From a virus (Duplodnaviria; Heunggongvirae; Uroviricota; Caudoviricetes), in the IMG/VR virus record IMGVR_UViG_2703718798_000005: 49,477 nucleotides of DNA. The stretch is one strand, 5' to 3'. This document shows, piece by piece, positions 1,067-45,441 of the stretch. How positions within the stretch are numbered: position 1 is the stretch's first letter; each line of letters starts with the position of its first letter. The position numbers and the translations under genes are program-made. Below the pieces are notes generated by a model. The model was not told the DNA's origin, did not search any database, and saw only the letters and a program-made list of their open reading frames with translations.

Positions 1067-3172
1067 ATGAGTGAAGGACCAGGCGGGCCACAGGGAGCGA
1101 CCGCAGGCGGTACGCTGGCAATGCGAATGCTGTCACAGCAGGCGATGGTCGCCAGCCAGATGAAACGGGCAGCCAACGACAAAGCCATTGCACAGATGTT
1201 GGCATCAAAAAAGTCTGGCTCCCCCGCCGCCAGGCTGGGCGATGAAATTCAGCACAAGAGTTTTTTGGGGGCGCTGGCAGGGGCCGTGCTGGGGGCGATA
1301 GTGACCATCGCAGAAGGTTGCCTGATTATGGCCGCCTGTGCCACCGGCCCTTATGCGCTGGTTCTGGTGCCTGCGCTGATGTATGCCAGCTATAAGGCGA
1401 GTGATTATGTGGAGGAGAAACAGAACCAGCTTGAATCATGGATAAACAGCTTTTGTGACACGGACGGCGCCATCAATACCGGTTCTGAAAACGTAAAAAT
1501 TAACGGAAAGCCAGCAGCCCGTGCAGCCGTCACCCTTCCCCCTCCTCCCCCACCTGGAGCAATACCTGAAGTCCCACAGGGGGAACCCTCATGGGGTGAT
1601 ATTGCCACTGACCTGCTTGAATCGGCAGCGGAAAAAGCAGTACCACTGGCGAAGGCCTGGGGGAACGCTGTTATCACCCTGACGGACAGCAATGCCAGTT
1701 TTATGGATCGCGTCAGTGCAGGCGCATCGCTTCTGTTTCCCAGCGGCCCGGTATTAATGGAATTTGCCACGATGGTGGGCGGGCGTGGCGAAATCAAAAA
1801 AGATGTGGATTTCCCGGAAGCCGGTGAGGACACGGCGCTCTGCGACAAGGAGAACAAACCACCGAGGATAGCCCAGGGCAGCAGCAACGTCTTTATCAAC
1901 AATCAGCCTGCCGCGCGCCAGGGGGACAAACTGGAGTGCAGTGCGGCGATCGTGGAAGGTTCGCCGGACGTCTTTATTGGGGGTGAGCAGGTCACCTATC
2001 TGGATATCCAGCCGGAGTTCCCGCCATGGCAGAGAATGATCCTGGGAGGAATAACGATAGCCAGCTATCTTCTGCCGCCAGCAGGACTGCTGGGAAAACT
2101 GGGGAATCTGGCGAAACTGGGCAAACTGGGAAACCTGCTGGGGAAAAGCGGAAAGCTGCTGGGCGCAAAACTCGGCGCGTTGCTGGGGAAAACAGGTAAG
2201 TCGTTAAAAAGTATTGCCAATAAAGTCATCAGATGGGTAACAGATCCTGTCGATCCGGTAACCGGCGCGTACTGCGACGAACGTACCGACTTCACCCTGG
2301 GCCAGACCCTCCCCCTCTCCTTCACCCGTTTCCACAGTTCGGTACTGCCACTGCATGGCCTGACGGGCGTGGGCTGGAGTGACTCCTGGAGCGAATACGC
2401 CTGGGTGCGTGAACAGGGAAACCGGGTGGATATCATCAGCCTGGGAGCCACGCTGAACTTCGCCTTCGACGGTGAAAGTGATACGGCGGTTAACCCGTAT
2501 CACGCCCAGTACATTCTGCGCCGCCGTGATGATTATCTGGAGCTGTTCGACAGGGATGCACTGAGCAGCCGCTTCTTTTATGACGCCTTTCCGGGAATGC
2601 GTCTGCGCCACCCGGTGACTGACGATACCAGCGATGACCGCCTGGCACACAGCCCCGCAGACCGGATGTACATGCTGGGCGGGATGAGCGACACCGCCAG
2701 CAACCGCATCACGTTTGAGCGCGACAGCCAGTACCGGATCACGGGTGTCAGTCACACCGACGGGATCCGGCTTAAACTGACGTACCACGCCAGCGGCTAC
2801 CTGAAAGCCATTCACCGCACGGATAACGGCATACAGACGCTGGCGACCTACGAACAGGATGCGCGGGGGCGGCTGACAGAAGCGGATGCGCGGCTGGACT
2901 ACCACCTGTTTTATGAGTACGACGCTGCGGACCGGATCATCCGCTGGTCCGATAACGACCAGACGTGGAGCCGTTTCACCTACGATGAACAGGGCCGGTG
3001 CGTGACCGTCACCGGGGCGGAGGGCTATTACAACGCCACGCTGGACTATGGGGACGGCTGCACCACCGTGACGGACGGCAAGGGCGCTCACCGTTATTAC
3101 TATGATCCTGACGGCAATATTCTGCGGGAAGAAGCGCCGGACGGCAGCACCACCACGTATGAATGGGTGTAA
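1067..3172 (+). pseudogene. rhs: rhs T6SS effector, 5' portion (prePAAR motif, TM helices, PAAR domain, first Rhs repeats), truncated by prophage insertion
   Basis: 701 aa ORF: AARLGDEIQH prePAAR-type motif, hydrophobic helices, PAAR-like segment (NVFINNQPAARQGDKLECSAAIVEGSPDVFIGG), YDxxGR-type repeats; stops two codons into the prophage left end; reading frame continues at about 42661. Confidence 0.8.
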
Positions 3173-25773: not shown

Positions 25774-26019
25774 ATGAAAACCATCTTTATCAAACCCGCG
25801 CCGGGACGCCTGATTCGTGATCCCGACACAATGCGCCCGCTGGCACAGGAGGGGGAGGAAAAGCCCTTTACGCCGTTCTGGTGTCGGCGTCTTGATGACG
25901 GCGATGTCATTCAGGCTGAAAAAGCCGCTGAAGAGGCTCCGGCTGTATCTGCGGATGCAACGACTGCGACAGAAAAACCGGTCGCCCAACCGGCATCCGA
26001 TAAGGAGAAACCGCAATGA
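25774..26019 (+). CDS. Hypothetical protein (Mu gp38 position)
   Basis: 81 aa ORF immediately upstream of the sheath gene. Confidence 0.45.
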   Translation: MKTIFIKPAPGRLIRDPDTMRPLAQEGEEKPFTPFWCRRLDDGDVIQAEKAAEEAPAVSADATTATEKPVAQPASDKEKPQ

Positions 26020-27515
26020 TTAATTTTGACGGGATCGGTAATGACCGCCGTATACCGCTGATTGAGGTTGAGTTTAATAACTCCATGGCTGTCACCGGCA
26101 CTCCGGCACAGCGTCAGTGTGTGCTGCTGTTTGGTCAGGCGAGAATGAAAGAGAATGCCGTGGACGGTGCCGGTGTTCTGGATGTTCCGGTCAGGATCAC
26201 CCGTGCGTCTCAGGCAACAGAATTCTGGGGGCGCGGCTCCATGATTGCCCTGATGGTGGCGGAATTTATCGCCATCAATCCTGATGCTGAACTGTATGCC
26301 ATTGCTCAGGGGAGCGGCACCGGTCAGGCTCAGGCATGTCTCATGAATATAATTGGCACCGCCTCTCAGGATGGTGTTCTGCACATTTATATCGGCGGTC
26401 GGCGTTATCTGCTGGCTGTCACGAAGGGGCAGAAAGGTAAGGAGCTTATTGACGCTCTGGTCTCTGTTATTAATGCCGATGCTGATGCGCCCTTCAGTGC
26501 TTATGCAGGTCAGGTAGCAGATAACGCCAGCGGACTCAAGGGAAGTATGGGAATTAATGCCCGTTTTACCGGTGAATGTTCCGTACATGATATCCGTGTT
26601 AATTATCATGACGGAGAAACCACACCGGGTGGACTGACCATTGAACTTGGGTATCCCAAAACAAAAGCCACTAACCCGGATATCACCCGAAGCGTGGCGG
26701 GTATGGGCGATCGCCAGTACAACTATGTCGTCATGCCCTATAAGGATGATGCAAACCTGAAAATCATCAGTGATGAGCTTCTGAAACGCTGGGGACCGGC
26801 CAAAATGTCTGACGGTGTGCTGTGGATGGCGCATACCGGCACGTTTGGTGAGGTGCAGGCATTCGGGGCAAAACGCAATGATTTTCTGGCGACCTGCACA
26901 TTCATTCCCAAAGCCCCTGAACCGGATTACCTCTGGGCAGCGGCGGTCTGCGCCACCTGTGCGCCGTCTCTGGGGGCAGATCCTGCGCGTCCGCTTCAGA
27001 CGCTGGCGCTTCCGTCACGCATGGCCCCGGCCCCGGCCGATCGTCTGACGCGTGAAGAGCGTAACAGTCTGCTGTGGGGAGGGATTGCCACGGTCAGTGT
27101 GGCTGCCGGTGATGTGGTTCAGATCGAACGTCAGGTGACCATGTATCGCCAGAACGTGTACGGCGAAAGTGATCCCAGCTATCTGGATGTGGAAACCATC
27201 TACACCCTCTCCTGGCTGCGTTATTCCCTGCGTACTTTTATCACACAACGTTTTCCGCGCCATAAACTGGCTGATGACGGGACGCCCGTTCGTGCCGGTC
27301 AGAATATCGTGACGCCGGAGATCATGAAGCTTCAGTTAATTTCGCTGGGTGAAGAGTGGGTGGAACTCGGGCTGGTCGAAAATCTGGACACCTTTAAAAA
27401 GAATCTGCTTGTGGAGCGTAATGCGTCAGATCGAAACCGTCTTGACGTGTTATGCACGCCGGATCTGGTTAACCAGTTCCGCTTCCTGGCAGCACAGATC
27501 CGTTTCATTTTGTGA
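26016..27515 (+). CDS. Contractile tail sheath protein
   Basis: 499 aa; size and position upstream of tube and tape measure. Confidence 0.8.
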   Translation: MINFDGIGNDRRIPLIEVEFNNSMAVTGTPAQRQCVLLFGQARMKENAVDGAGVLDVPVRITRASQATEFWGRGSMIALMVAEFIAINPDAELYAIAQGSGTGQAQACLMNIIGTASQDGVLHIYIGGRRYLLAVTKGQKGKELIDALVSVINADADAPFSAYAGQVADNASGLKGSMGINARFTGECSVHDIRVNYHDGETTPGGLTIELGYPKTKATNPDITRSVAGMGDRQYNYVVMPYKDDANLKIISDELLKRWGPAKMSDGVLWMAHTGTFGEVQAFGAKRNDFLATCTFIPKAPEPDYLWAAAVCATCAPSLGADPARPLQTLALPSRMAPAPADRLTREERNSLLWGGIATVSVAAGDVVQIERQVTMYRQNVYGESDPSYLDVETIYTLSWLRYSLRTFITQRFPRHKLADDGTPVRAGQNIVTPEIMKLQLISLGEEWVELGLVENLDTFKKNLLVERNASDRNRLDVLCTPDLVNQFRFLAAQIRFIL

Positions 27516-27523
27516 GGTAAGGC

Positions 27524-27889
27524 ATGAGCGGAAAACAGTATCAGGGCACGGCCACTATCCGTGTGAACGGTCAGGAATACGAGACGCTTGAGGGGGCTAC
27601 ATTTTCTCCGTCAGGTTTTGAACGTGAAGTGGTGAAAGGCGCGAAAGTCTATGGTTACCGCCAGAAACCACGTGAAGCGACACTGGACTGCAAATTTCCG
27701 GCAGGCGGAGAAGGTTCACCAGCCGCCGATGAAATCAACAACTGGACTGCTGTCACTATCGAGTTTGTGGCGGATACCGGCGAAGTCCACATGATGACGA
27801 AGGCCTGGAGCAGTGAACCGGCCTCGCTTGACGGTGGCGGGGAGATCTCCGTGAAGTTCGCCAGCGCCACCAGTACCCGTGTTCAGTGA
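27524..27889 (+). CDS. Tail tube protein
   Basis: 121 aa following the sheath gene. Confidence 0.75.
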   Translation: MSGKQYQGTATIRVNGQEYETLEGATFSPSGFEREVVKGAKVYGYRQKPREATLDCKFPAGGEGSPAADEINNWTAVTIEFVADTGEVHMMTKAWSSEPASLDGGGEISVKFASATSTRVQ

Positions 27890-27903
27890 TCAGGAAAAAT
27901 AAA

Positions 27904-28380
27904 ATGACCACACGTAAGAAAAAAACGGCAGTTTCCGAGGCAGCCGTGATGGAGGCAATCCGGGAAGCACTTGAGGGGGCTGATCCACGCACTGCCGGGC
28001 TGACAGAGCAACTGGCAAAGGGATATGTGGATCTGCTTGATGGTCTGCCGTTTGGTGAGACCCGTGAATATCGTGTCACGTTCCGGGAACTGACAGCGAA
28101 AGACAGTATTGACGCAGAAGCAGAAGCCGAGCGCGTGGTGGAGACAAACAATGGCCCGATGCTGATAGCGTCTCCGTCGTTACGCGGTGTTGCACTGCTG
28201 CGCCGTCAGATTGCCGCAGTGGGAGACATTGAAGGTCCGTTGTCACCCCGTCAGATTGGACAGTTAAGCGAGCGCGATCTCTCCCGCCTGATGGCAGCGG
28301 TCAGCCTGCTGGATACCGCGCTTGCCGGAAAGCTGGCAGCTGACCGGGGGCGATCAGGCGCAGTGTCGGGATCAGATTGA
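27904..28380 (+). CDS. Tail assembly chaperone, putative (possible frameshift extension to 28504)
   Basis: Start moved to ATG 27904 (RBS AGGA); lies between tube and tape measure genes; the neighbouring frame is open from about 28292 to 28504. Confidence 0.5.
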   Translation: MTTRKKKTAVSEAAVMEAIREALEGADPRTAGLTEQLAKGYVDLLDGLPFGETREYRVTFRELTAKDSIDAEAEAERVVETNNGPMLIASPSLRGVALLRRQIAAVGDIEGPLSPRQIGQLSERDLSRLMAAVSLLDTALAGKLAADRGRSGAVSGSD

Positions 28381-28506
28381 AGAAGCGGCAATTATCCTGG
28401 GGATGGTGACAAAAAGCGGTCCGGAATGGGCGCTTAACCTCCCCCTGTCGCAACTTTACCGGCACTGCCGACAGACAGAAAAAATCATCAGAACGAAGCA
28501 GTAAGT

Positions 28507-30582
28507 ATGGCCCGAAATCTCAGAGCATCTCTGATAGTTGATTTGCTCGGCAATATCTCAGCCAAATCCCGCCAGTGGTCACAGGAGCTGGGGGCATTCT
28601 CACGCTCCGGCCAGGCGGGGCTGGGTGGCCTGGGAAATGCTGCCCGCCGTGCCGGGCAGGAAACAGATGTACTCGGAAGCAGGATGCAGCGCACGCTGGC
28701 CGGGGTGCGGGGCAGTATCCGCCATGTCACTTCTGATTTTGACCGTCTTCAGGGCAGTATTACCGGCACCATCGGGCGGATCAGCAATCTTTACGGAATG
28801 CTGGCCGGTGGTGCTGCTGTATATGGCTTTAACCGGGGATTTATTCGCCCGGCAGCGGAGATGGAAACCTATATGATTCGCCTGAACTCCCTTTACAAAG
28901 GGGATCGGGCGAAAACTGATGATGTCCGCAGGTGGGCAATACAGAATGCGAAGGAAACCACCTGGGGGCTGGCTGGCGTCATGCAGGAATATACGTCCAG
29001 TCTGGGCTTTGGTATGAGTGACAGGGAGGCCCGAAATTTTGTCACCATGCTTCAGGATCAGGGTGCCGTGGGCGGCTGGTCACTGTCCGATGCACAGGGG
29101 GCATCCCTGCAACTGAAACAGATGTATGCAAGAGGCAGTATTCAGGCAGCGGATGCAAATATTCTTGCCACCTACGGCATTAATGCCTACCGCGTGCTGG
29201 CTGATCGTCTGGGTGTGGACCAGAAAGTGGTCAGAAAACTTGGTGAAAAAGGGCTGCTTGGGCCGGACAGTATTCGCCTGTTATTTCAGACGCTGGCGGA
29301 ACAGGCCAGGGGAGCACAAAAGGACGCAATGAATTCCTGGAGTGGCCTGACGGCCATGATGGGTGACGTCTGGGATCAGTTTGCCCGGGATGTGATGGAC
29401 AGTGGGCCATTTGAAAAACTGAAGGGTAATCTCAGGGGATTTCTTTCATGGGTTGACAGTGCCAAATCTGATGGCAGTTACCATTCCCTGGCGGAAAGTA
29501 CGGCATCAGCCATGAACCAGGGCTTTGAGTATGCCCGTGATGCAGTGACAGGGTTTTATCAGGCGATCAGAAAGGTACGCGACACGCTTCAGGCTCTGCG
29601 GGATGCGGGCTATGGTGATGCGCTGGATCGCATTGGTCAGGGGGCACAGACCGCCGCGAAATACCTGCTGTACATGTATCTCGCCACCCGTGCCCTGAAA
29701 ATGGCGCGGGCTGTCGGAACGGGGATTATACGTCCGGGTGCTGCATTGCTGGGATACGGATTATCAGCGGCGGCCTTCCTTACCTCACCTTTCCGGCGCT
29801 CTCCTCCGGCCGGAACACCACCAGGCACATCTCAGGGACGAGGGCAACGTTTTATAAACTTTCTTACCGGGGTAAATCCGGCAGCCGTTCAGCCAGTACT
29901 TGTAACAAACTGGCCCACAGGAGGACTGTCCGGCACCGGCGCGACCGATACATCCTCAGGCGGACGTCAGGGGCGGGGCCGCAGGAAACGCGGACCGGGG
30001 CGCGGAAGACCGGTCACGCCTCCCCTGCCACCGTCCCCAGTGCCACCGTCTCCCTCTTCTGGTGGGGCAGGGTTCTGGGGGCGCATGATGGGGCGCGCCG
30101 GTGGGTTACTTTCGTCTGTCGGTAGCCGCATGGGGCTGGGGCGTTTCTCCGGCTTTTTCCGCAGTGCCGGTGGACTGGCCGGCCGGCTGGGTGGAGGTGC
30201 CCTGTGGGCTGGCGCGATGGCAGCCCCGGTTCTGCTGGATGGCAGCGCCAGTGCCACAGACAAGGGAGAAGCGGTCGGCTCTCTTGCAGGCAGTATTGCC
30301 GGTGGTGCGCTGGGGGCGGCAGCCGGACCTGTGGGGATTGCCATTGGTTCTACGGTGGGCAGCTATCTCGGTAACTATCTGGGGGGATGGCTGACTGAAG
30401 CCTGGCAGAAATTACGGGGCAGTGATGATGAAAGCAGTGGACAGGCGGTACAAAAAGCCTCTGCCCGTGTGGAGCTGGTTGCCCCGGAAGGGTGGCAGGC
30501 TCGCAGTATTGATATTGATGACACGTCCGGTCACGGACTGGATGTGAATGTCTGGAACGGAGGGAATTATGGCCTCTGGTGA
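28507..30582 (+). CDS. Tail tape measure protein
   Basis: 691 aa; Gly/Ala-rich C-terminal region; follows the chaperone. Confidence 0.8.
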   Translation: MARNLRASLIVDLLGNISAKSRQWSQELGAFSRSGQAGLGGLGNAARRAGQETDVLGSRMQRTLAGVRGSIRHVTSDFDRLQGSITGTIGRISNLYGMLAGGAAVYGFNRGFIRPAAEMETYMIRLNSLYKGDRAKTDDVRRWAIQNAKETTWGLAGVMQEYTSSLGFGMSDREARNFVTMLQDQGAVGGWSLSDAQGASLQLKQMYARGSIQAADANILATYGINAYRVLADRLGVDQKVVRKLGEKGLLGPDSIRLLFQTLAEQARGAQKDAMNSWSGLTAMMGDVWDQFARDVMDSGPFEKLKGNLRGFLSWVDSAKSDGSYHSLAESTASAMNQGFEYARDAVTGFYQAIRKVRDTLQALRDAGYGDALDRIGQGAQTAAKYLLYMYLATRALKMARAVGTGIIRPGAALLGYGLSAAAFLTSPFRRSPPAGTPPGTSQGRGQRFINFLTGVNPAAVQPVLVTNWPTGGLSGTGATDTSSGGRQGRGRRKRGPGRGRPVTPPLPPSPVPPSPSSGGAGFWGRMMGRAGGLLSSVGSRMGLGRFSGFFRSAGGLAGRLGGGALWAGAMAAPVLLDGSASATDKGEAVGSLAGSIAGGALGAAAGPVGIAIGSTVGSYLGNYLGGWLTEAWQKLRGSDDESSGQAVQKASARVELVAPEGWQARSIDIDDTSGHGLDVNVWNGGNYGLW

Positions 30583-31914
30583 CGGTCGTGGTGCGTTCCG
30601 TGGTGTGCCGTTCCTCGTCTGGCGTGAGCAGCGCGAACGTGGTGGGCGAAACATTGTCCGTCGGGAATATCCGTTACGGGAAACCGGTGGGGCAGACGAT
30701 CTGGGACCTAAACTGACTGAATTTACGTTCAGTGTACTTGTGATGGGGGATGATGTTCAGACACAGCGAAATCGTCTGCGTGATGCCCTTCGTGCTCCCG
30801 GTGCCGGGGAGCTGCTTCACCCGGATTACGGCACGTTAAATGTGCTGATAAACAGCTTTGAAAGTCGTTATAACGCCGCTGAACAGGGCGTGGTTGAGTT
30901 CACCATTAATGTCACGCCGGTAAGTGATGATACCGCACCTGCTGTCACACAGGACACGGCCGCCATTCTGGAGCAGAAGAGTACCACCGCGCTCGGGCAG
31001 GTTTTTGAAACCCTGGAAGCGGGCTGGACGGTGATCTCTGACGGAATGCACGATGTCCAGGCAATGACCGAAACCATCAGTGATAAGGTGTCCGCCCTGG
31101 AAAATGCCGTTTCCGGCATGGGGATTGTACAGGATATCAGTGCCTTTACTGCCACGTTCACGGCGCTGAAAGGGAATGCCACGGCATTACTGACAGCACC
31201 TTCCCGCATGGCCTCATCTTTTGCGGGGCTTTTCAGTGCCCTGATCACCCTGCCATCGCTGCCGTCACTGTCTTCAGGAGGCCTGAATACCCGGCCGGCA
31301 GTATCGGCCGGACGACATCCGCCGTCTCTCAGGGAATGCCGCAACTGTACAGGACATTATCTTCCCTGCGTTACGTGCTGGATGAGCAGGATAATCCGCA
31401 GACTCTCATCGGTCTGACACCGGCAGCACAAAAGAATATTCGTCTGATACGGGCGGTAATGCAGAGTGCTGCCGTGGTGGCCCAGGCACAGACCGTGGGA
31501 AAACTGCTGGATCAGGTTCTCAGTCAGGAAACCCTGCCGGACAGTGACGCAGCCCACCGTACCTGGCCTGTCTGGCTGGAAAGTTCAGTTGATCTTCAGC
31601 GCATTAACCGTGACTTAAGCGAAGCGCTCGAACGGCAGGTGATGACACTGTCCGGGCAGGGGTATACCGCCACGGCGCTGACGCTTCGTGATGCCAGACT
31701 GGCACTGACAGAGGATCTGAATACACGGGGAGTTCAGCTACCCGGTGCAACAGTAGTGACTGTACGTACCACCGAGCCTGCACTGGTGACCCTGTACCGT
31801 GCCACCGGGAACAGTACCGGCTGGCAACGTTTTGTGCGCCGTAACGGTATTGTTGATCCGCTGTTCATTCCCGGAGGCCATTCAGTGGAGGTGATTAGTG
31901 AGCAGCAGGGTTGA
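30569..31914 (+). pseudogene. DNA circularization protein (Mu N/gp43-like), apparently frameshifted
   Basis: N-terminal part in frame 2 (30569-31417), C-terminal part in frame 1 (open from about 31084, ATG at 31336, to 31914); the frame-2 tail is Cys-rich and implausible while frame 1 reads like protein. Confidence 0.55.
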
Positions 31915-33022
31915 ACTGTATCTGGGCGGTGAGATTTTTTCCGGCTGGCTGACGGTGAGTGTTCGTCGCTCTCTTGAACATCTGGCGGGCTCCTTTGAAC
32001 TGGGGGTAATGATGCCCGGTGTACGCCTTCCGTCATCCGTCCGTGCCGGTCAGTCTCTGGAATTGCGCATTGACGGTCAGCCTGTGATCACTGGCTGGCT
32101 GGATCAGGTCCGGCAGCGCATCAGCGCCACGCGTTTTCAGATCACGCTCAGCGGACGGGATAAAACCGGTGACCTGGTGGACTGTTCAGCCATTCATCCG
32201 GGCAGCCAGTGGAGGAACCGCACGCTGGAGCACATTGCTTCAGATTTGTGTGCTCCGTTCGGGGTCACGGTGCGCTGGCAGGTAAATGATGCAACGGCAG
32301 CCCGGCCCTTTTCCACCTTCACACTGGAAAATTCAGAAACCGTGGCAGATGCGCTGACACGGGCCGCGAGACACAGAGGCGTCCTGGTAACCAGTAATGC
32401 CGCCGGTGAACTGGTTTTCACTCAGGCCGGCAGTCAGCGTGGCGACACGCTGACGCTGGGCGAAAATCTGCTGGATTTGGATCACAACGTGGATCACCGT
32501 CTGCGCCACAGTGAATACCGTGTACGGGGGCACGGGCGTGGTGGTGGTCATGCCGGGGATGCACTGACAGCCGGAACGCTGGCCGCACCAGTTGGTACGG
32601 TGACAGACAGTGCCATCCACCGTTACAGACCGAAAATTGTGCTGGCGGATCATGCTGTTGATGCAGACGGTGCACGCCAGAGGGCTGTCCGGGAAATGCG
32701 CCGGGCGGTTGCCCGCTCTGTGCGCCTGACAGCCACCGTGCGGCACTGGTTTCGGGAGAACGGCCAGTTGTGGGATATCAACCTGCTGACGGCTGTCACG
32801 GCTCCCCGCACCGGAGTGGAAGAGCGTGATCTTCTTGTCTGTCAGGTGGAGTTTTCGCTGGATGCAAATCACGGCGAAACCACCCGTCTGATTCTGGCAC
32901 CCCGTGACGGCTTTATTGTTCCGGCAGAGCCGGGAAACAGCGGAAGCGGAAATGCGGGTGACGTGGACGCCTTCGTGCGGGCACAGATGAAAAAACAGGG
33001 GATTAAATTCAATGATGAATGA
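31898..33022 (+). CDS. Baseplate hub / late control D-like tail protein (Mu gp44-like)
   Basis: 374 aa; position after the tape measure and N genes. Confidence 0.7.
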   Translation: MSSRVELYLGGEIFSGWLTVSVRRSLEHLAGSFELGVMMPGVRLPSSVRAGQSLELRIDGQPVITGWLDQVRQRISATRFQITLSGRDKTGDLVDCSAIHPGSQWRNRTLEHIASDLCAPFGVTVRWQVNDATAARPFSTFTLENSETVADALTRAARHRGVLVTSNAAGELVFTQAGSQRGDTLTLGENLLDLDHNVDHRLRHSEYRVRGHGRGGGHAGDALTAGTLAAPVGTVTDSAIHRYRPKIVLADHAVDADGARQRAVREMRRAVARSVRLTATVRHWFRENGQLWDINLLTAVTAPRTGVEERDLLVCQVEFSLDANHGETTRLILAPRDGFIVPAEPGNSGSGNAGDVDAFVRAQMKKQGIKFNDE

Positions 33023-37711: not shown

Positions 37712-38272
37712 ATGCTGATTGGCTATATACGCGTATCAACAAATGACCAGAACACCGGTTTACAAAGAAATGCGCTGGAATGTGCAGGATGTGAGCAGAT
37801 TTTTGAAGACAAAATGAGTGGTAAAACGACACAGCGGCCGGGACTGAAGCGGGCACTGAAGAAACTAAAACCCGGTGACACGCTGATGGTCTGGAAACTG
37901 GACAGGCTGGGGCGCAGTATGCGCCACCTTGTTGCGCTGACAGATGAATTACAGCAACAGGGGATAAATTTTCGTAGTCTTACTGACAACATTGATACGT
38001 CAACCCCCATGGGGCGCTTCTTTTTTCACATAATGGGTGCGCTGGCAGAAATGGAGCGTGAATTAATTGTCGAACGGACACGGGCTGGTCTTGCAGCTGC
38101 CCGTGAAAGGGGACGAACCGGCGGCAGACCCCGCCGTCTCACGCAGGAACAATACGAGCAGGTCGGGCGTTTACTGGCCGGGGGTGTCAGTCGAAGACAG
38201 GTGGCACTTATTTTTGATATCGGTCTTTCAACCCTTTATCGTTATTATCCTGCGAGCGTTTCGGAAAAATAA
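37712..38272 (+). CDS. gin: Serine DNA invertase (Gin/Hin/Cin family)
   Basis: 186 aa; N-terminal MLIGYIRVSTNDQN catalytic-Ser motif; C-terminal HTH; adjacent to the invertible segment. Confidence 0.9.
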   Translation: MLIGYIRVSTNDQNTGLQRNALECAGCEQIFEDKMSGKTTQRPGLKRALKKLKPGDTLMVWKLDRLGRSMRHLVALTDELQQQGINFRSLTDNIDTSTPMGRFFFHIMGALAEMERELIVERTRAGLAAARERGRTGGRPRRLTQEQYEQVGRLLAGGVSRRQVALIFDIGLSTLYRYYPASVSEK

Positions 38273-38371
38273 GACGCTCTCTTTGTTGGGCCTTTACTGA
38301 ATTAACGCAAAATGGCGTTTATCGGTCTGTGGATATGATAATTCAGTTTATTCAGGAACAGGCTGATTATT

Positions 38372-40411
38372 ATGACGTCCAAATGGGTTCAACTATCATC
38401 AATGCCCGGAAACTTTACTGTTAAAGTTTCCGGTGGTACAGCGGCATTTCTTGAGGCTCCCTTTCCTCCGGCCGAAACAAAAGGAGGAATGACATTTGCT
38501 GACTGTCTCATCAGTTTTAATACACGGGATTGCCTGTGGGTAAGGCCAGTATCCGGTGATCCGAGTGTGGAAATTACCGGAGCGGGTATTGGTGCGGTCA
38601 TTCCGTTAAGTGCTGATGTTGCCGGTACTGCTGAACCGTCAGACTGGGATAATGCTGAAACACATACCCGTCCGTCAGGAAATGAAACTGCTTCCAGCTC
38701 CCCTTCCTGGTATTACGTGGTGGTTCTTGCTGGTCAGTCAAACGGTATGGCTTACGGTGAAGGTCTGCCACTGCCGGAGACATATGACCGCCCCGAACCG
38801 CGTATTATGCAGTTAGCCCGTCGCAGTACAGTCACGCCGGGAGGTAAAGCCTGTCAGTATAACGACATCATTCTGGCCGACCACTGTCTGCATGATGTGC
38901 AGGATATGAGTGGAAAAAATCACCCGAAAGCGGATGTGGCTAAAGGGCAATATGGCACCGTGGGTCAGGGGCTTCACATTGCCAAAAAACTGCTGCCGTT
39001 TATTCCGGCAGATGCGGGGATTCTGCTGGTTCCCTGCTGCCGTGGTGGTTCTGCATTCACGGCGGGTGCTGACGGCACGTACAGTGACAGCACGGGTGCT
39101 TCAGAGGACTCAGCCCGCTGGGGTGTGGATAAGCCGCTGTATAAGGACTTAATCAGCCGGACAAAAGCGGCACTGGCGAAGAACCCGAAAAACCGCCTGC
39201 TTGCTGTGGTGTGGATGCAGGGCGAGTTTGATATTGATGCGAAGCCGACGGAGCATTCTGCGCTGTTTCTGGCGATGGTGGAAAAATTCCGCGCAGACCT
39301 GGCTGAACAGGCGGAACAGTGTACCGGTGGCAGTGCTGCTGGCGTTCCGTGGATTTGTGGCGATACCACGTATTTCTGGAAACAGAAAAATGAACCAGCA
39401 TACCAGGCAATCTATGGCGGCTACAAAAACAAAACAGATAAAAACATTCATTTCGTTCCATTAATGACAGATGAAAATGGCGTGAATGTACCCACCAACA
39501 ATCCGGCAGAAGACCCGGATATTGAATCCATTGGTTATTACGGCTCAACGTGGCGTAACAGTGCCGCTACCTGGACATCTGCGGACCGGGCCAGCCATTT
39601 CAGTGCCTGGGCGCGCCGGGGTATTATTTCTGACCGTCTGGCCACGGCTGTTCTGACTCATGCAGGGCGAACCACAGTAAAAGCCGATGTTCCATCTTCT
39701 GAAACTGAAGCACCAGTGCCGTCACCTTCAGAAACTGAAGCAGTAACCACAACACTGCTGTCTTACCGTGTCAGTGAGTCAGAAGGAAATCTGAAAGCCC
39801 AGGGCTGGGAGCCGGCTGGCGGTAAAGCTGAAATTATCAGTGATGCAGGAGGCACAGGTGGTAAGGCAATGAAACTGACCAAGGAAACAGGTAAATCATC
39901 CTGGTATCTGGATCATGATGCCGGTACTGGTGCTGAACTGCTGAAAAATGGTGGTTTAATCAGTTGTCGTTTTAAAGTACCTGGCGACCTGGTGGCAAAC
40001 CAGTATGTCATGGCGCTTTACTGGCCGGTTTCCTCTCTGCCGCAGGGTGTCACCCTGACAGGGGATGCAGGGAATAATCTGCTGGCATCGTTCTACATCC
40101 AGACAGACGCAAAAGACCTGAATGTGATGTACCACAATGCAAAAGTGGCAACAAATAACCAGAAACTGGGAACCTTTGGTGCATTTGATAATGAATGGCA
40201 TACGCTGGCCTTCCGTTTTGCAGGAAATAACAGCCTTCAGGTTATTCCGGTTATTGATGGTCAGGATGGTGCCGCGTTTACCCTGACGCAGTCACCAGTA
40301 GGAACTTTCCCGGTGGACAAACTCCGCGTAACGGATATCACCAAAAATGCAACTTACCCGGTGCTGATTGACAGCATTGTGGTGGAAGTGAAAAAAGCGG
40401 TAACAGAATAA
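38372..40411 (+). CDS. Cargo protein: SASA/SGNH-type esterase domain (sialate O-acetylesterase-like, NanS-p-like) with a lectin-like C-terminal domain
   Basis: 679 aa; YYVVVLAGQSNGMAYGEG block resembles the GQSN motif of DUF303/SASA esterases; C-terminal 200 aa may be a ConA-like beta-sandwich; no counterpart at this position in Mu. Confidence 0.55.
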   Translation: MTSKWVQLSSMPGNFTVKVSGGTAAFLEAPFPPAETKGGMTFADCLISFNTRDCLWVRPVSGDPSVEITGAGIGAVIPLSADVAGTAEPSDWDNAETHTRPSGNETASSSPSWYYVVVLAGQSNGMAYGEGLPLPETYDRPEPRIMQLARRSTVTPGGKACQYNDIILADHCLHDVQDMSGKNHPKADVAKGQYGTVGQGLHIAKKLLPFIPADAGILLVPCCRGGSAFTAGADGTYSDSTGASEDSARWGVDKPLYKDLISRTKAALAKNPKNRLLAVVWMQGEFDIDAKPTEHSALFLAMVEKFRADLAEQAEQCTGGSAAGVPWICGDTTYFWKQKNEPAYQAIYGGYKNKTDKNIHFVPLMTDENGVNVPTNNPAEDPDIESIGYYGSTWRNSAATWTSADRASHFSAWARRGIISDRLATAVLTHAGRTTVKADVPSSETEAPVPSPSETEAVTTTLLSYRVSESEGNLKAQGWEPAGGKAEIISDAGGTGGKAMKLTKETGKSSWYLDHDAGTGAELLKNGGLISCRFKVPGDLVANQYVMALYWPVSSLPQGVTLTGDAGNNLLASFYIQTDAKDLNVMYHNAKVATNNQKLGTFGAFDNEWHTLAFRFAGNNSLQVIPVIDGQDGAAFTLTQSPVGTFPVDKLRVTDITKNATYPVLIDSIVVEVKKAVTE

Positions 40412-40447
40412 AAAAATCCCGCCGGTCATGATATGGCTGGCGGGAGC
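40412..40447. terminator. Hairpin flanked by an A-tract (terminator-like, better oriented for the minus strand)
   Basis: AAAAAAA-TCCCGCC...GGCGGGA; on the minus strand the hairpin is followed by TTTTTTT. Confidence 0.4.
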
Positions 40448-40557
40448 TACCTAACCCATAAAGGAAAATAAAAATACTCCCGAAGGAGTGGTTATCAGTC
40501 GCTTCGATGTTTTTACCCGATAACGAATTATGTAGTCAATATCAAAGGTAAGGTTAT

Positions 40558-40740
40558 ATGACATTCGTTCATACAATGCTGCTTTATTTCTGCGCTGTGG
40601 TCAGTGCGTTATATCTGGTGAGCGGCGGTTATAAGGTCATCAGAAATTATATTCGCCGTAAAATTGATGATGCGGCAGCTGAAAAACTCAGTAAAACAGC
40701 ACAGGCACCGTCATCCCCAAACGACCCGACCCCGCTCTGA
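40558..40740 (+). CDS. Small predicted membrane protein (cargo region)
   Basis: 60 aa; N-terminal TM helix LLYFCAVVSALYLVSGG. Confidence 0.35.
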   Translation: MTFVHTMLLYFCAVVSALYLVSGGYKVIRNYIRRKIDDAAAEKLSKTAQAPSSPNDPTPL

Positions 40741-40775
40741 TAACGGGGCAATATACCTGCAAAAGGAGAATATTC

Positions 40776-41021
40776 ATGCCAGAGATTAAAGGCACGGTTA
40801 CTGAAGAGCTTGTCAAACAGGCACTTTATTCTGAAGAAGTGAACCGCGTGCTGAAGGCGCAGGTTCGCAAGGATTTTGAGGCACAAATCGACGCATATGT
40901 TGATGAAGTGCTGGCCCGAATGGTTGGCCGTTCTCCGGCTGAAAACAGCACGGAAAATGATCCTCAACCCGTAGAGCAACCAGAGCCGGTTCAGCCCGGA
41001 ACTGACGGTACTATGATGTAA
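40776..41021 (+). CDS. Small acidic hypothetical protein (cargo region)
   Basis: 81 aa ORF with RBS AAAGGAGAA. Confidence 0.4.
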   Translation: MPEIKGTVTEELVKQALYSEEVNRVLKAQVRKDFEAQIDAYVDEVLARMVGRSPAENSTENDPQPVEQPEPVQPGTDGTMM

Positions 41022-41569
41022 CAATACCGACCGGCAGGTTTCCCTGCCGGGTGAGTTTGTTAATGCACGTTTTGTGTATTTTCCCTCCTGGGAGAACAGG
41101 CAGGACATATCAGCATCCTGAAACAGGAAGCATTTTTGGGTTTGTATGTCTTGCCATTTTGAGATCGAGAACGGCGATAGATGAGCTGTAAGGGAGTCTT
41201 ACAGGCAGGGCAAACAGGCTCTTTCATCCATGATAAAGATCTCCTTTTTATGCATCTCTGCTTTACAGGAGACTGGGGAATATCATAGGATACGCCACGA
41301 GCTCGAAGTAAAGCATTGATGCAAAATTGTCTAAATCGGCCCAGAATAGTTCGCGCTATCTGGGTCGCTCTTTATGTATGTAGTATCCCATTGATTTGAA
41401 ACATACTACATATACGCGCGATCCTACCTTCACTATATAAAAAGTCAATAAAATGATCATTTTATGATCGTTTTCACCACCTAACTCTTCGTTTTCTTTA
41501 AGTAAATAATCACCTACCTGAATCATTGTTGATGACTTTTCAATCTATTTGTTGTATCAATTAAACAAA

Positions 41570-41640
41570 TCGAATCGATCGTTTTTGTCGATCGATTGCA
41601 TGAGAAAGGCATCAACAACAAAGCAGGAGGTTATGCGGCC
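41570..41640 (+). promoter_or_regulatory. com-mom promoter-proximal region with paired GATC sites
   Basis: GATC at about 41577 and 41590 within ATCGAATCGATCGTTTTTGTCGATCGATTG; RBS AGGAGG before com. Confidence 0.4.
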
Positions 41641-41841
41641 ATGTATCGAAACATACGGTGCCGACACTGCAATAAGCTACTGGCACGGGCCAGTTTCAGT
41701 TATCTGGAAGTAAAATGTCCGCGCTGTAAAACCCTCAATCAAATCACATCTCCGAGCGCCACAGAGCACCCCACATACACAAGGAAATCCTGTCGTGGGG
41801 AACAGAAAGCAAGTCACATCCCGAATCATCAGCACGCCTGA
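41641..41841 (+). CDS. com: Com-like zinc-finger translational activator of mom
   Basis: Start moved to ATG 41641; [14 protein letters not shown]...[11 protein letters not shown] four-Cys pattern like Mu Com; overlaps the mom start. Confidence 0.75.
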
Positions 41842-42532
41842 ACTTATTCGCTATAACGACAATATCGTTGGTTATGGCTCCCGTGAGTTGCGGGTTGAGA
41901 CAATAAGTTGCTGGCTGGCCAGACTGGTCATCGTCAATAAACATTACAGCCACCGTTTCGTAAATAACTCCTACCTTCATCTGGGCATATTTTCAGAACG
42001 GGAACTTGTTGGCGTAATGCAATGGGGTTACGCCCTTAACCCAAACAGTGGTGCACGCGTCGTAACGGGTACGCAGAACCGAGAATATATGGAGCTTAAC
42101 CGGCTATGGCTGCATGACTGTATGCCGAGAAACTCCGAATCAAGGGCAATCAGTTACGCGCTCAAGCTAATCAGGCAGCTTTATCCGCAGGTACAGTGGG
42201 TTCAGTCGTTTGCAGATGAGCGTTGTGGCTGTCTTGGTGTCGTGTATCAGGCAAGCAATTTTGATTATGTAGGCAGCCATGAATCAATATTCTATGAACT
42301 TGATGGCGAGTGGTATCACGAGATTTGCAGGAATGCCATTAAACGAGGCGGACAACGAGGTGAACATCTGAGGGCTAATATTGACAGAGCCAATGTTCAT
42401 AAGTTCCGACAGTTTCGTTACATCCGGTTTCTGAACAAGAGGGCCAAAAAACGCCTCAACACAAAGCTATTCAAAGTCCAGCCTTACCCAAAACCACAAA
42501 CAGTTAAAACTGGTTTGAAAGAGAGTGAATGA
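41795..42532 (+). CDS. mom: Mom-like DNA modification protein
   Basis: 245 aa; last gene at the right end and overlapped by com, as in Mu; start codon uncertain. Confidence 0.75.
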
Positions 42533-42584
42533 GCGCTTAAAAACTCATTCTAAAACTCAAAAGAAAAGCGCCGATTTAGTATCA

Positions 42585-42659
42585 AATAAGTTGCGTATCG
42601 GCGTTTTTCAGCAGTATCAAATGAAATGCAAATCGGTATCAAAAAAATCGCCGCGCTAT
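42585..42659. repeat. Prophage right end (attR-like) with three inverted TTTGATAC repeats
   Basis: AGTATCAAA at about 42588, AGTATCAAA at about 42613, GGTATCAAA at about 42636. Confidence 0.5.
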
Positions 42660-42660
42660 A

Positions 42661-45441
42661 TGGGATGAATACCATCACCTGCTGGCCCGCCACTCCCCTG
42701 CCGGGCGGGTGGAGAAATTTGAATACAACGCCGCACATGGTCAGTTAAGCTGTTATACGGCGGCAGACGGCGCGGAGTGGCAGTACTGCTATGATGAGCG
42801 CGGCCTGCTCAGCAACATCACCGACCCTGCCGGGCAGACGTGGACGCAGCAGTGTGATGAACGCGGCCTGCCGGTGAGTCTGGTGTCGCCACAGGGCGAA
42901 GAGACCCGGCTGGCATACACCGCACAGGGGCTGCTGTCGGGAATATTCCGCCAGGATGAACGGCACCTGGGCATAGAGTACGACCACCACAACCGGCCGG
43001 AAACACTCACCGACGTGATGGGCCGTGAACACCACACCGAATACAGTGGTCACGACCTGCCGGTGAAGATGCGCGGCCCCGGCGGTTAGTCAGTGCGGTT
43101 GCAGTGGCAGCAGCACCATAAACTGAGCGGCCTTGAGCGGGCAGGAACCGGCGCAGAAGGATTCCGCTATGACCGCCACGGCAACCTGCTGGCGTACACG
43201 GACGGTAACGGCGTTGTCTGGACAATGGAATACGGCCCGTTTGATTTGCCGGTGGCGCGAACGGACGGTGAAGGCCACCGCTGGCAGTACCGCTACGATA
43301 AAGACACGCTGCAACTGACAGAAGTCATTAACCCGCAGGGCGAGTCTTATCTTTATATTCTGGACAACTGTGGCCGGGTGACGGAAGAACGTGACTGGGG
43401 CGGCGTGGTCTGTCGTTACCGCTATGACGCCGATGGCCTGTGTACCGCCAGGGTTAACGGCCTGGAGGAAACTATCCTCTACAGCCGGGACGCCGCAGGC
43501 CGCCTGGCAGAAATCATCACGCCGGAAGGCAAAACGCAGTATGCGTATGACAAATCCGGCAGGCTGACGGGTATCTTCAGCCCGGACGGCACATCACAGC
43601 GCACCGGCTATGATGAACGCGGGCGGGTGAATGTCACCACTCAGGGCCGACGGGCCATTGAATACCACTACCCCGACGAACACACCGTCATCCGCTGTAT
43701 CCTGCCACCGGAAGATGAACGCGACAGACACCCCGATGAATCCCTGCTGAAAACCACGTACCGTTATAACGCCGCCGGAGAACTGACGGAGGTCATTCTG
43801 CCGGGGGATGAGACGCTGACGTTCAGCCGTGATGAGGCGGGACGTGAAGTGCTCCGGCACAGTAACCGGGGTTTTGCCTGTGAGCAGGGCTGGAATGCAG
43901 CCAGCCAGCTTGTCACCCAGCGCGCCGGATTTTTCCCGGAGGAAACCACATGGGGCGGGCTGCTCCCCTCACTGGTACGGGAGTACCGTTACGACAGCGC
44001 GGGCAATGTGTCGGCTGTCACCAGCCGGGAAGATTACGGACGGGAAACACGGCGGGAGTACCGGCTGGACCGGAACGGTCAGGTCACGGCGGTGACAGCC
44101 TCAGGCACCGGGCTGGGCTATGGCGAAGGCGATGAGTCCTATGGCTATGACAGTTGTGGCTACCTGAAGGCGCAGTCTGCGGGCAGGCACCGGATAAGTG
44201 AAGAGACTGACCAGTATGCCGGAGGCCACCGGCTGAAACAGGCCGGAAACACGCAGTATGACTATGACGCCGCAGGCCGGATGGTCAGCCGCACAAAACA
44301 CCGTGACGGCTACCGCCCGGAAACAGAGCGGTTCCGGTGGGACAGCCGGGACCAGCTGACCGGGTATTGCAGCGCACAGGGTGAACAGTGGGAATACCGC
44401 CACGACGCCAGCGGCAGACGAACAGAGAAACGCTGTGACAGGAAGAAAATCCGCTTCACGTACCTGTGGGATGGCGACAGTATTGCGGAAATCCGGGAAT
44501 ACCGCGATGATGAACTGTACAGCGTACGGCACCTGGTGTTTAACGGCTTTGAGCTGATAAGCCAGCAGTGCAGCCGGGTACGGCAGCCGCACCCGTCCGT
44601 GGCCCCGCAGTGGGTGACGCGAACGAATCATGCGGTGAGCGACCTGACGGGCCGCCCGCTGATGCTCTTTAACAGTGAAGGTAAAACCGTCTGGCGGCCG
44701 GGGCAGACCAGCCTGTGGGGGCTGGCACTCAGCCTGCCCGCAGACACCGGCTACCCGGACCCGCGCGGGGAGCGGGACCCGGAAGCGGACCCCGGCCTGC
44801 TGTATGCGGGACAGTGGCAGGATGCAGAATCGGGGCTGTGCTATAACCGGTTCCGGTACTACGAGCCGGAAACCGGGATGTACCTGGTGAGTGATCCGCT
44901 GGGGTTGCAGGGAGGGGAGCAGACTTACCGGTATGTGCCGAATCCTTGTGGGTATATCGATCCTTTGGGGCTGGCTATATGTCAGTTAGCCCGCTGGACG
45001 AAATGGGGGAGTGAGCAAAGCAACATATCTGATGTTTTGAACTCATTAGGGAATAGAGCACTTAAATATGCTAATGGTGATTGGATAAAATCAGAGGCTG
45101 CATTCAATAAATACATAAACATGATAAATAAAAGACTAGAATTAACAGGTAGTAAATTTAGAGTTGAGATTCAACCAGCCATAAAAAATGGAGAGCGAGT
45201 TCCTGCGACAACGAATGGACCATTTAAAGTAAATGGTAAGTGGACATCCGGCACTCATTATACAGGTGGTTCCAAACGTCTAGATGCCGGTATTATTGAT
45301 ATCACATCTCCTACAAACCAATATGGATTACATCCAGTTATTGAAGGATTTGATATAACACTTAATAAAACAAAACCATCAGCAGTGGATATATATTCAG
45401 ATGTGTTTGGTGGGATTGATATTAACGACATTCGGTTATAA
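42661..45441 (+). pseudogene. rhs: rhs effector, 3' portion (Rhs repeat core and C-terminal toxin tip), with in-frame TAG at 43087-43089
   Basis: Frame continues the 5' fragment; ORF track splits it into 42709-43089 and 43093-45441 around a TAG; DPLGL-type demarcation (YIDPLGLA) at about 44960; low-GC C-terminal tip of about 150 aa. Confidence 0.8.

Follow-up and report, generated by a model that had tools for sequence, protein, structure and literature searches.

The stretch analysed here (the window: 49,477 nucleotides of a Caudoviricetes virus, IMG/VR record IMGVR_UViG_2703718798_000005) carries a Mu-like prophage, and this report concerns the block of genes that lies between its DNA invertase gene, gin, and its com-mom operon. 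The prophage extends from 3168 to 42659 and comprises repressor, MuA and MuB genes, genes for head, tail and baseplate, an invertible fibre segment, gin, com and mom. It is 99-100% identical to the Sp18-type prophages of enterohaemorrhagic Escherichia coli (EHEC), including Sp18 of O157:H7 Sakai, and the prophage of strain CFSAN027343 is a 100% match. The right end resembles that of Mu in several respects: it has a Gin, a zinc-ribbon Com, a Mom and, ahead of com, a stretch rich in GATC sites, which in Mu is the OxyR/Dam control region, and com overlaps the start of mom as in the Mu-type com-mom operon. The spacing between gin and com is different. The preliminary description had noted that com-mom follows gin directly in Mu, whereas about 3.2 kb is interposed here, and the measured distances (94 bp in Mu, 3368 bp in the window) agree with it; three plus-strand genes and a decayed minus-strand gene occupy the 3368 bp. 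The gin-com regions of Mu and the window were too diverged for their DNA alignment to show where the insertion junctions lie. Positions of the individual features are collected in Table 1.

The main gene of the block is a plus-strand open reading frame (ORF) at 38372-40411, which encodes a protein of 679 amino acids (aa) and contains YYVVVLAGQSNGMAYGEG. The protein matches the Pfam family SASA (E 6.6e-12), and its residues 104-428 align with the chromosomal NanS of E. coli (YjhS; PDB 3PT5) at E 2e-118, with 58% identity over 320 positions, that is, over the whole esterase core. Block I of the SGNH signature (GQSN) lies at residues 121-124, with Ser123, and block IV (RASH; R(A/S)SH in the comparison with NanS) at residues 406-409, with His409; both blocks have been described for NanS and NanS-p (PMC10462455). 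The C-terminal domain matches Pfam DUF6645 (E 4e-70), and residues 459-674 are 80% identical (E 3e-112) to the C-terminal lectin domain of the phi24B NanS-p (PDB 6YP6). All four aromatic residues of the sugar site proposed for phi24B vb_24B_21 are kept (Y545, Y550, Y575 and F646). Because of the matches to 3PT5 and 6YP6, the GQSN and RASH blocks and the sugar-site aromatics, the protein is, as judged from its sequence, a NanS-p-family sialate O-acetylesterase; PHROGs assigns it to phrog_143, and many copies of it are already named as NanS-p-type esterases at NCBI. Other NanS-p alleles have been shown to remove acetyl groups from Neu5,9Ac2 and from mucin glycans, and to allow cells to grow on Neu5,9Ac2 (reviewed in PMC8065619). 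Like the EHEC NanS-p proteins (933W L0105/z1466; phi24B gp84, which is vb_24B_21), which are multicopy in EHEC genomes, the window protein has SASA followed by DUF6645, at 74-83% aa identity, and genes for DUF1378 and DUF826 follow it. NanS itself is a single-domain protein; the N-terminal domain, the two linkers and the lectin domain of the window protein have no counterpart in it. No signal peptide is apparent in the sequence. Many database entries begin at Met11 (start at 38402 rather than 38372, giving 669 aa), but the upstream start is supported by Trp5, which both the E. coli and the Salmonella lineages keep.

The N-terminus is where the protein departs from other NanS-p enzymes. The preliminary description had recognized a SASA/SGNH esterase with a GQSN motif and a lectin-like tail, on which Pfam SASA, 3PT5 and DUF6645/6YP6 agree, and had left both terminal domains unassigned; this holds for the N-terminal domain, which has no Pfam match, but not for the C-terminal one. 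Of the Pfam families it had named, SASA was found and DUF1737 was not: no DUF1737 match appeared in the 679 aa protein even at E values up to 1, and its N-terminus is unrelated to that domain in alignment. Unlike NanS-p, the window protein has in this position an unrelated beta domain of 78 aa and a longer linker. An exhaustive HMMER search with residues 1-112 against 1.84 billion representative proteins returned five matches, four of which are copies or fragments of the same gene in E. coli and Salmonella; the fifth (P0005, a long repeat-rich protein) was judged to be probably compositional. Identity of the domain is about 59% to the type found in strain M1 and 26-29% to the Salmonella type. 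The domain was not found in a contig scan covering one genome per species, nor in the genomes of isolated phages that were searched (among them D108 and SfMu), and it has no paralogue elsewhere in the window. An AlphaFold2 model built from a four-sequence alignment is all-beta over about residues 1-78 (predicted local distance difference test, pLDDT, of 74-88 in ten-residue blocks over residues 1-70, and lower over 71-80), so that the domain is predicted to be a beta-barrel; the model from the full-length single sequence had a mean pLDDT of 33 and was not used. Fold searches with the N-terminal domain gave weak cupin/jelly-roll matches together with uncharacterised phage proteins of about 90 aa. 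Comparison of alleles indicates purifying selection on the domain (non-synonymous differences of 0.24 from the M1 type, with synonymous differences of 0.76, which are saturated; dN/dS of 0.06 against the FWSEC0008 allele). Sequence comparison thus presents a new finding: DUF1737 is replaced by an orphan domain that has been seen fused only to SASA esterases of Mu-like phages.

The genomic setting differs in the same way. NanS-p genes of lambdoid phages lie between stx/Q and the lysis genes (a layout seen in L005 and L046), unlike the window gene, which lies between gin and com of a Mu-like transposable prophage of myovirus type. DNA homology between the window and lambdoid nanS-p is confined to 38706-40400, starting at the ASSSPS linker and reaching the 3′ end of the gene. 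Two loci of other Mu-like prophages (L008 and L017) match the window at 97-100% identity across gin and the N-terminal domain, and at 99% from about 40860 onward, but between these points, from SASA to the start of DUF826 and including the lectin domain and DUF1378, identity is only 47-73%; the drop from 97% to 73% falls within the linker. At the protein level the window SASA and lectin domains are 83% and 79% identical to those of Stx phage 1717, and 67-70% and 39-74% identical to those of other Mu-like alleles. A natural chimera, P0075 (L047, 608-4658), has DUF1737 and a lambdoid-type 5′ part of SASA joined to an Sp18-type 3′ part, and is followed by DUF1378, DUF826, a 154 aa gene, com and mom; it is evidence that the nanS-p copies of a lambdoid and a Mu-like prophage have recombined, probably with rearrangement of the chromosome. 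The mosaic in L008 and L017, the closeness to phage 1717 and the P0075 chimera together argue that the esterase body recombines between alleles, in one case with a lambdoid copy. These comparisons are evidence, new here, that an enzyme body has been exchanged between prophages of unrelated architecture, with the N-terminal domain staying with the Mu backbone while the esterase-lectin body behind it is swapped. The L017-type allele had no megablast match in the phage collection, and its donor could therefore not be named. Three apparently non-Mu contexts of that allele (H161-H163) were also considered; H161, as inspected, is a rearranged Mu-like prophage.

The block is a conserved possession of its lineage. 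Among 5426 complete E. coli genomes, 226 have a com-mom end of the window type; the window-type block (80% or more of the 5 kb segment from gin to mom) is present in 168 of them, and a second esterase allele type occupies the same place in 43. All Sp18-type Mu-like prophages examined have the block, including those of two diverged E. coli lineages, and more distant prophages, found in a mouse strain and in strains from human faeces (com-mom about 95% identical), keep the order esterase, DUF1378, DUF826, small minus-strand gene, com, mom. The same gene order was found in all 34 IMG/VR loci recovered through the N-terminal domain, some of which are without gin. In a Mu-like prophage of Salmonella enterica the N-terminal domain and the start of SASA follow gin, and the contig ends within the gene. 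Since the block is fixed across diverged E. coli lineages and the esterase gene also follows gin in Salmonella, it is not a recent arrival. The earlier view of the block as a locally acquired cargo insert is thus not upheld: the genes are indeed a conserved set in related Mu-like phages (168 + 43 of 226; 34/34 IMG/VR loci), in which any structural role of theirs would be putative. An esterase-bearing Mu-like prophage is present in about 4% of complete E. coli genomes, mostly Shiga toxin-producing strains, and the literature searched does not mention the Sakai genes ECs4993-4996.

Table 1. Features of the gin-com block and its borders (window coordinates)
Feature	Position	Strand	Basis and remarks
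gin-type DNA invertase	37712..38272	+	Pfam Resolvase E 1.4e-51 and HTH_7; Sakai DNA-invertase ECs_4992; left block boundary
Conserved motif TTTACTGAATTAACGCAAAA upstream of esterase gene	38293..38312	+	Sole well-conserved upstream stretch between window-type and M1-type lineages
N-terminal domain, predicted all-beta, esterase residues 1-78	38372..38605	+	No Pfam match; AlphaFold2 model
Acidic Ser/Thr/Pro-rich disordered linker ending ASSSPS, residues 79-112	38606..38707	+	pLDDT <50; recombination breakpoint
SASA/SGNH catalytic domain, NanS type, residues 113-430	38708..39661	+	PDB 3PT5; GQSN and RASH blocks
Lectin-like jelly-roll carbohydrate-binding domain DUF6645, residues 459-679 and stop codon	39746..40411	+	Pfam; PDB 6YP6
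DUF1378 small membrane protein, 60 aa	40558..40740	+	Pfam E 1.2e-38
DUF826 small acidic protein, 81 aa	40776..41021	+	Pfam E 2.8e-15; pI 4.3; right recombination breakpoint inside
GC-rich hairpin CCGGCAGG-TTTC-CCTGCCGG	41031..41050		Between stops 41021 (+) and 41060 (-) of convergent genes
Frameshifted ECs_4996-type gene remnant	41060..41526	-	Sakai ECs_4996; phrog_26524 E 2.5e-52
Strong hairpin in hypervariable patch 41323-41376	41337..41367		Alignment of 8 distinct alleles
Perfect palindrome AATCGATCG-N7-CGATCGATT with two Dam sites	41573..41597		44 bp upstream of com start; candidate mom operator
com (41641-41841) and mom (41795-42532)	41641..42532	+	Zn_ribbon_Com E 3e-12; Mom E 2.6e-77; right block boundary

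The other prophages also provide some information about how the esterase gene might be expressed. The window has a single copy of the motif TTTACTGAATTAACGCAAAA, upstream of the gene, and Salmonella retains part of it; on its conservation it is possibly a promoter or activator site. Some M1-type prophages have no gin, and a divergently oriented gene lies upstream, so the esterase gene there needs a promoter of its own. The prophages without gin are those of strain M1 (L006/L045) and of IMG/VR loci L025-L028, L030, L033, L035, L040 and L041; in them the esterase gene lies directly 3′ of the tail-fibre assembly gene, and with gin missing the fibre segment is presumably fixed in one orientation. 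Elsewhere in the genome the window and the M1 lineage (L045) are unevenly related: head genes are 96-97% identical, while sheath, tape measure, gpN, gpP and fibre (window 26016-33016) are only 63-77% identical, with conserved islands at tube, gp47 and gp48, and the tail module is thus a mosaic. As to its place in the chromosome, the window prophage interrupts the gene of a PAAR-Rhs type VI secretion system effector (1067-3172 and 42660-45441), with prePAAR, PAAR, DUF6531 and RHS repeats to its left and further RHS repeats to its right. The sequence ATGGG occurs at both 3163-3167 and 42660-42664, a 5 bp target duplication of the kind that Mu-type transposition leaves, and in other strains identical prophages lie at different sites (lsrC, sorM and flgL).

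The two small genes behind the esterase were correctly characterized in the preliminary description as encoding a membrane protein of 60 aa and an acidic protein of 81 aa. The former has a single hydrophobic, putatively transmembrane, helix (2.02 in a 19-residue Kyte-Doolittle window) and an isoelectric point (pI) of 9.3; the acidity of the latter is evident from its pI (Table 1). In a lambdoid Stx2b prophage the order is Q, stx2b, nanS-p, DUF1378, DUF826, holin, lysozyme and Rz, and because the three plus-strand genes of the block occur there in the same order, the block is colinear with part of the lambdoid stx-to-lysis module. DUF1378 and DUF826 have likewise been noted as neighbours of nanS-p (PMC10462455). 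The gap between the esterase gene and DUF1378 (40412-40557) contains two more hairpins, at 40417-40445 and at about 40476-40489, and identity to the L008 and L017 alleles is at its lowest there (23%).

Downstream of DUF826 lies a stretch that had been described as about 575 bp of AT-rich, non-coding DNA with hairpins. AT-rich it is (GC content of 0.36-0.44 across 41200-41650), and both of the hairpins then quoted are present, at 41186-41204 and 41378-41411; it is not simply non-coding, however, since a frameshifted minus-strand gene overlaps it and contains both hairpins. In O157 Sakai this gene (ECs_4996) is intact and encodes 154 aa, with an N-terminal part and a C-terminal four-cysteine zinc ribbon (CPAC...CPAC). 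In the window it is split into 41356-41526 (56 aa) and 41060-41227 (55 aa), the frameshift following from a net length difference of 2 nt between alleles inside a divergent patch (41323-41376), and RefSeq marks it as a frameshifted pseudogene in the prophage that is 100% identical. The ORF is broken, at various positions, in 19 of 22 loci, and in the M1 lineage the same slot is taken by a gene unrelated to it (86 aa, uninterrupted in 12 of 13 loci); together these indicate that the slot is variable and that the gene in the window is decaying. The 55 aa ORF (minus strand) has its own ATG and contains the zinc ribbon about 400 bp from com, itself a zinc-ribbon regulator; in five of eight distinct aligned alleles a 1-nt deletion removes that ATG. 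The GC-rich hairpin between DUF826 and the minus-strand gene is probably a bidirectional terminator.

Closer to com, conservation returns: the last 95 bp or so before com, which include the GATC palindrome at 41573-41597, are conserved with the M1 lineage, in which the DNA further upstream is unrelated. Seven GATC sites fall within 41163-41593, a density of about 16 per kb as against 3.0 per kb in the whole window, or roughly fivefold. This density and the GATC palindrome fit a Dam-sensitive mom operator as in Mu, and the palindrome is a candidate for that operator. Two features are unlike Mu: the spacing of the palindrome (44 bp from the com start) and the lack of a Mu-type activator box. The box bound by the C activator at Mu Pmom has the form TTAT-N6-ATAA. 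No such box was found close to the genes of the block; the window has a single match, at 45436, which is outside the prophage.

The same stretch had been suggested to hold a small RNA or the promoter and operator of mom. The operator part is strengthened by the conserved 95 bp and the GATC palindrome, but for an RNA the Rfam 15 search of 38000-42800 gave no family match (a single chance-level match had E 0.82). There are nonetheless arguments for a wider form of the idea: rather than a dead gene, 41022-41640 would be a structured RNA with a function, such as a small RNA, or would hold regulatory hairpins that keep the toxic gene mom transcriptionally insulated. Folding is far more stable than chance on both strands, with z-scores of -4.7 and -5.9 on the plus strand and -5.2 and -6.0 on the minus strand, none of 100 shuffled sequences folding as well, compared with -1.2 for a neighbouring coding control. 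The hairpin at 41337-41367 lies in a hypervariable patch of 54 bp whose surroundings are 97-100% conserved, yet three alleles with differing stem sequences all keep a stem of 12-13 bp followed by a T-rich tail (-17.8, -21.5 and -20.2 kcal/mol; z-scores of -4.8 to -6.3). About 50 nt before this hairpin, at 41262-41291 on the plus strand, is a promoter-like site, and the ECs_4996-type ORF is broken in most loci. Against this, a scan for sigma-70 promoters found promoter-like sites to be no more numerous than in shuffled sequence, Sakai has an intact ORF of 154 aa with a PHROG match, and the M1 lineage has the whole stretch replaced. The covariation is also thin, coming from three alleles only, and the arms of a palindrome can stay matched through template-switch mutation without selection; retention of the hairpin could reflect either selection (as a terminator, or to insulate mom) or palindrome-templated mutation. 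A functional RNA is therefore regarded as doubtful, and the stretch is better described as a decaying minus-strand gene followed by what would be the mom control region.

Taken together, the domain identities, the conservation of the block, its mosaic structure and the pseudogene describe a region that is probably a conserved right-arm accessory module of the Sp18 lineage, whose main gene encodes a four-part NanS-p sialate 9-O-acetylesterase with a body shared with lambdoid prophages. The enzyme would consist of a lineage-specific beta-barrel, a flexible linker, the SGNH/SASA domain (Ser123, His409) and a lectin-like jelly-roll. The lectin-like domain may bring the enzyme to sugars, where, by homology, it would remove 9-O-acetyl groups from free or mucin-bound sialic acid, and the de-acetylated sialic acid could then be used by sialidases and the Nan pathway. 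Because it has no signal peptide, the protein would have to leave the cell on phage lysis or attached to particles. The esterase and lectin domains, DUF1378 and DUF826 would have been exchanged repeatedly with other alleles by homologous recombination. Some points weigh against this interpretation. Mitomycin C failed to induce Sp18 in Sakai (PMC2669165), the esterase activity of this particular allele is argued from homology, and no function for DUF1378 or DUF826 is reported in the literature searched. The original transfer may have gone in either direction, from lambdoid to Mu-like prophages or the reverse. A different account would make the gene a recent cargo (a moron) for lysogenic conversion, acting by de-acetylation of O-antigen or of a receptor or by superinfection exclusion. 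The preliminary description had named lysogenic conversion, modification of receptor or O-antigen, and superinfection exclusion as candidate roles. The gene does lie outside the Mu core and is absent from Mu, its N-terminal domain was not found in the isolated sequenced phages searched, the gin-mom PCR product of SfMu is only 1.5 kb, and some phage SGNH esterases de-acetylate O-antigen, an idea that has been raised for NanS-p as well (PMC8065619). But the distribution across E. coli and Salmonella is not that of a recent acquisition, the core shares 58% identity with NanS, whose specificity as a sialate esterase is known, and the lectin-site residues are kept, PADLOC gave no defence-system match for any protein of the block, and the protein has no signal peptide by which to reach the envelope of a living lysogen. 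Nothing points towards O-antigen, a receptor or exclusion; the evidence favours 9-O-acetyl sialic acids, and the cargo account is improbable.

The sialate esterase reading leaves room for a further proposal that would add to it: the enzyme may be a component of the virion, with its N-terminal domain anchoring it to the capsid or, more likely, to the tail or baseplate. This is put forward tentatively. The phi24B homologue, gp84, is abundant in the virion, where DUF1737 holds it on the capsid hexons, and is processed at its linkers (bioRxiv 10.64898/2026.04.10.717836). In the window a domain seen in no phages but Mu-like ones takes the place of DUF1737, with the switch exactly at the linker. That domain appears to be under purifying selection and has been kept while the enzyme body was swapped, and the gene sits 3′ of the tail-fibre/gin cluster. 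In addition, the 59% identity of the domain between the window and M1 is like that of the tail proteins and not like that of the head proteins. A virion-borne SGNH esterase is known in phage G7C, whose gp63.1 is an O-antigen deacetylase tailspike. Compared by plan only, proteins of this type and the window protein share a particle-binding N-terminal module, an esterase and a sugar-binding part; the predicted substrate of the window protein is sialic acid, unlike the O-antigen of gp63.1. By extension, and as no more than a possible generalization, NanS-p proteins might be modular virion-display enzymes, which the 78 aa domain would mount on a Mu-type contractile-tailed particle and DUF1737 on lambdoid podovirus capsids. 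If this is true, recombination at the linker would move one mucus-active enzyme between unrelated phage architectures in the same EHEC cell.

The enzyme family is already known, and so are the families to which the C-terminal domain and the two small ORFs belong, with a role proposed for the C-terminal domain only. NanS-p esterases are thought to help EHEC feed on the O-acetylated sialic acids of mucin, and the Sp18 gene is one more nanS-p locus to be included in counts of these genes in EHEC. The locus is also a hotspot for recombination between prophages, and its swapped N-terminus provides a clean natural experiment on the role of the N-terminal domain in these enzymes.

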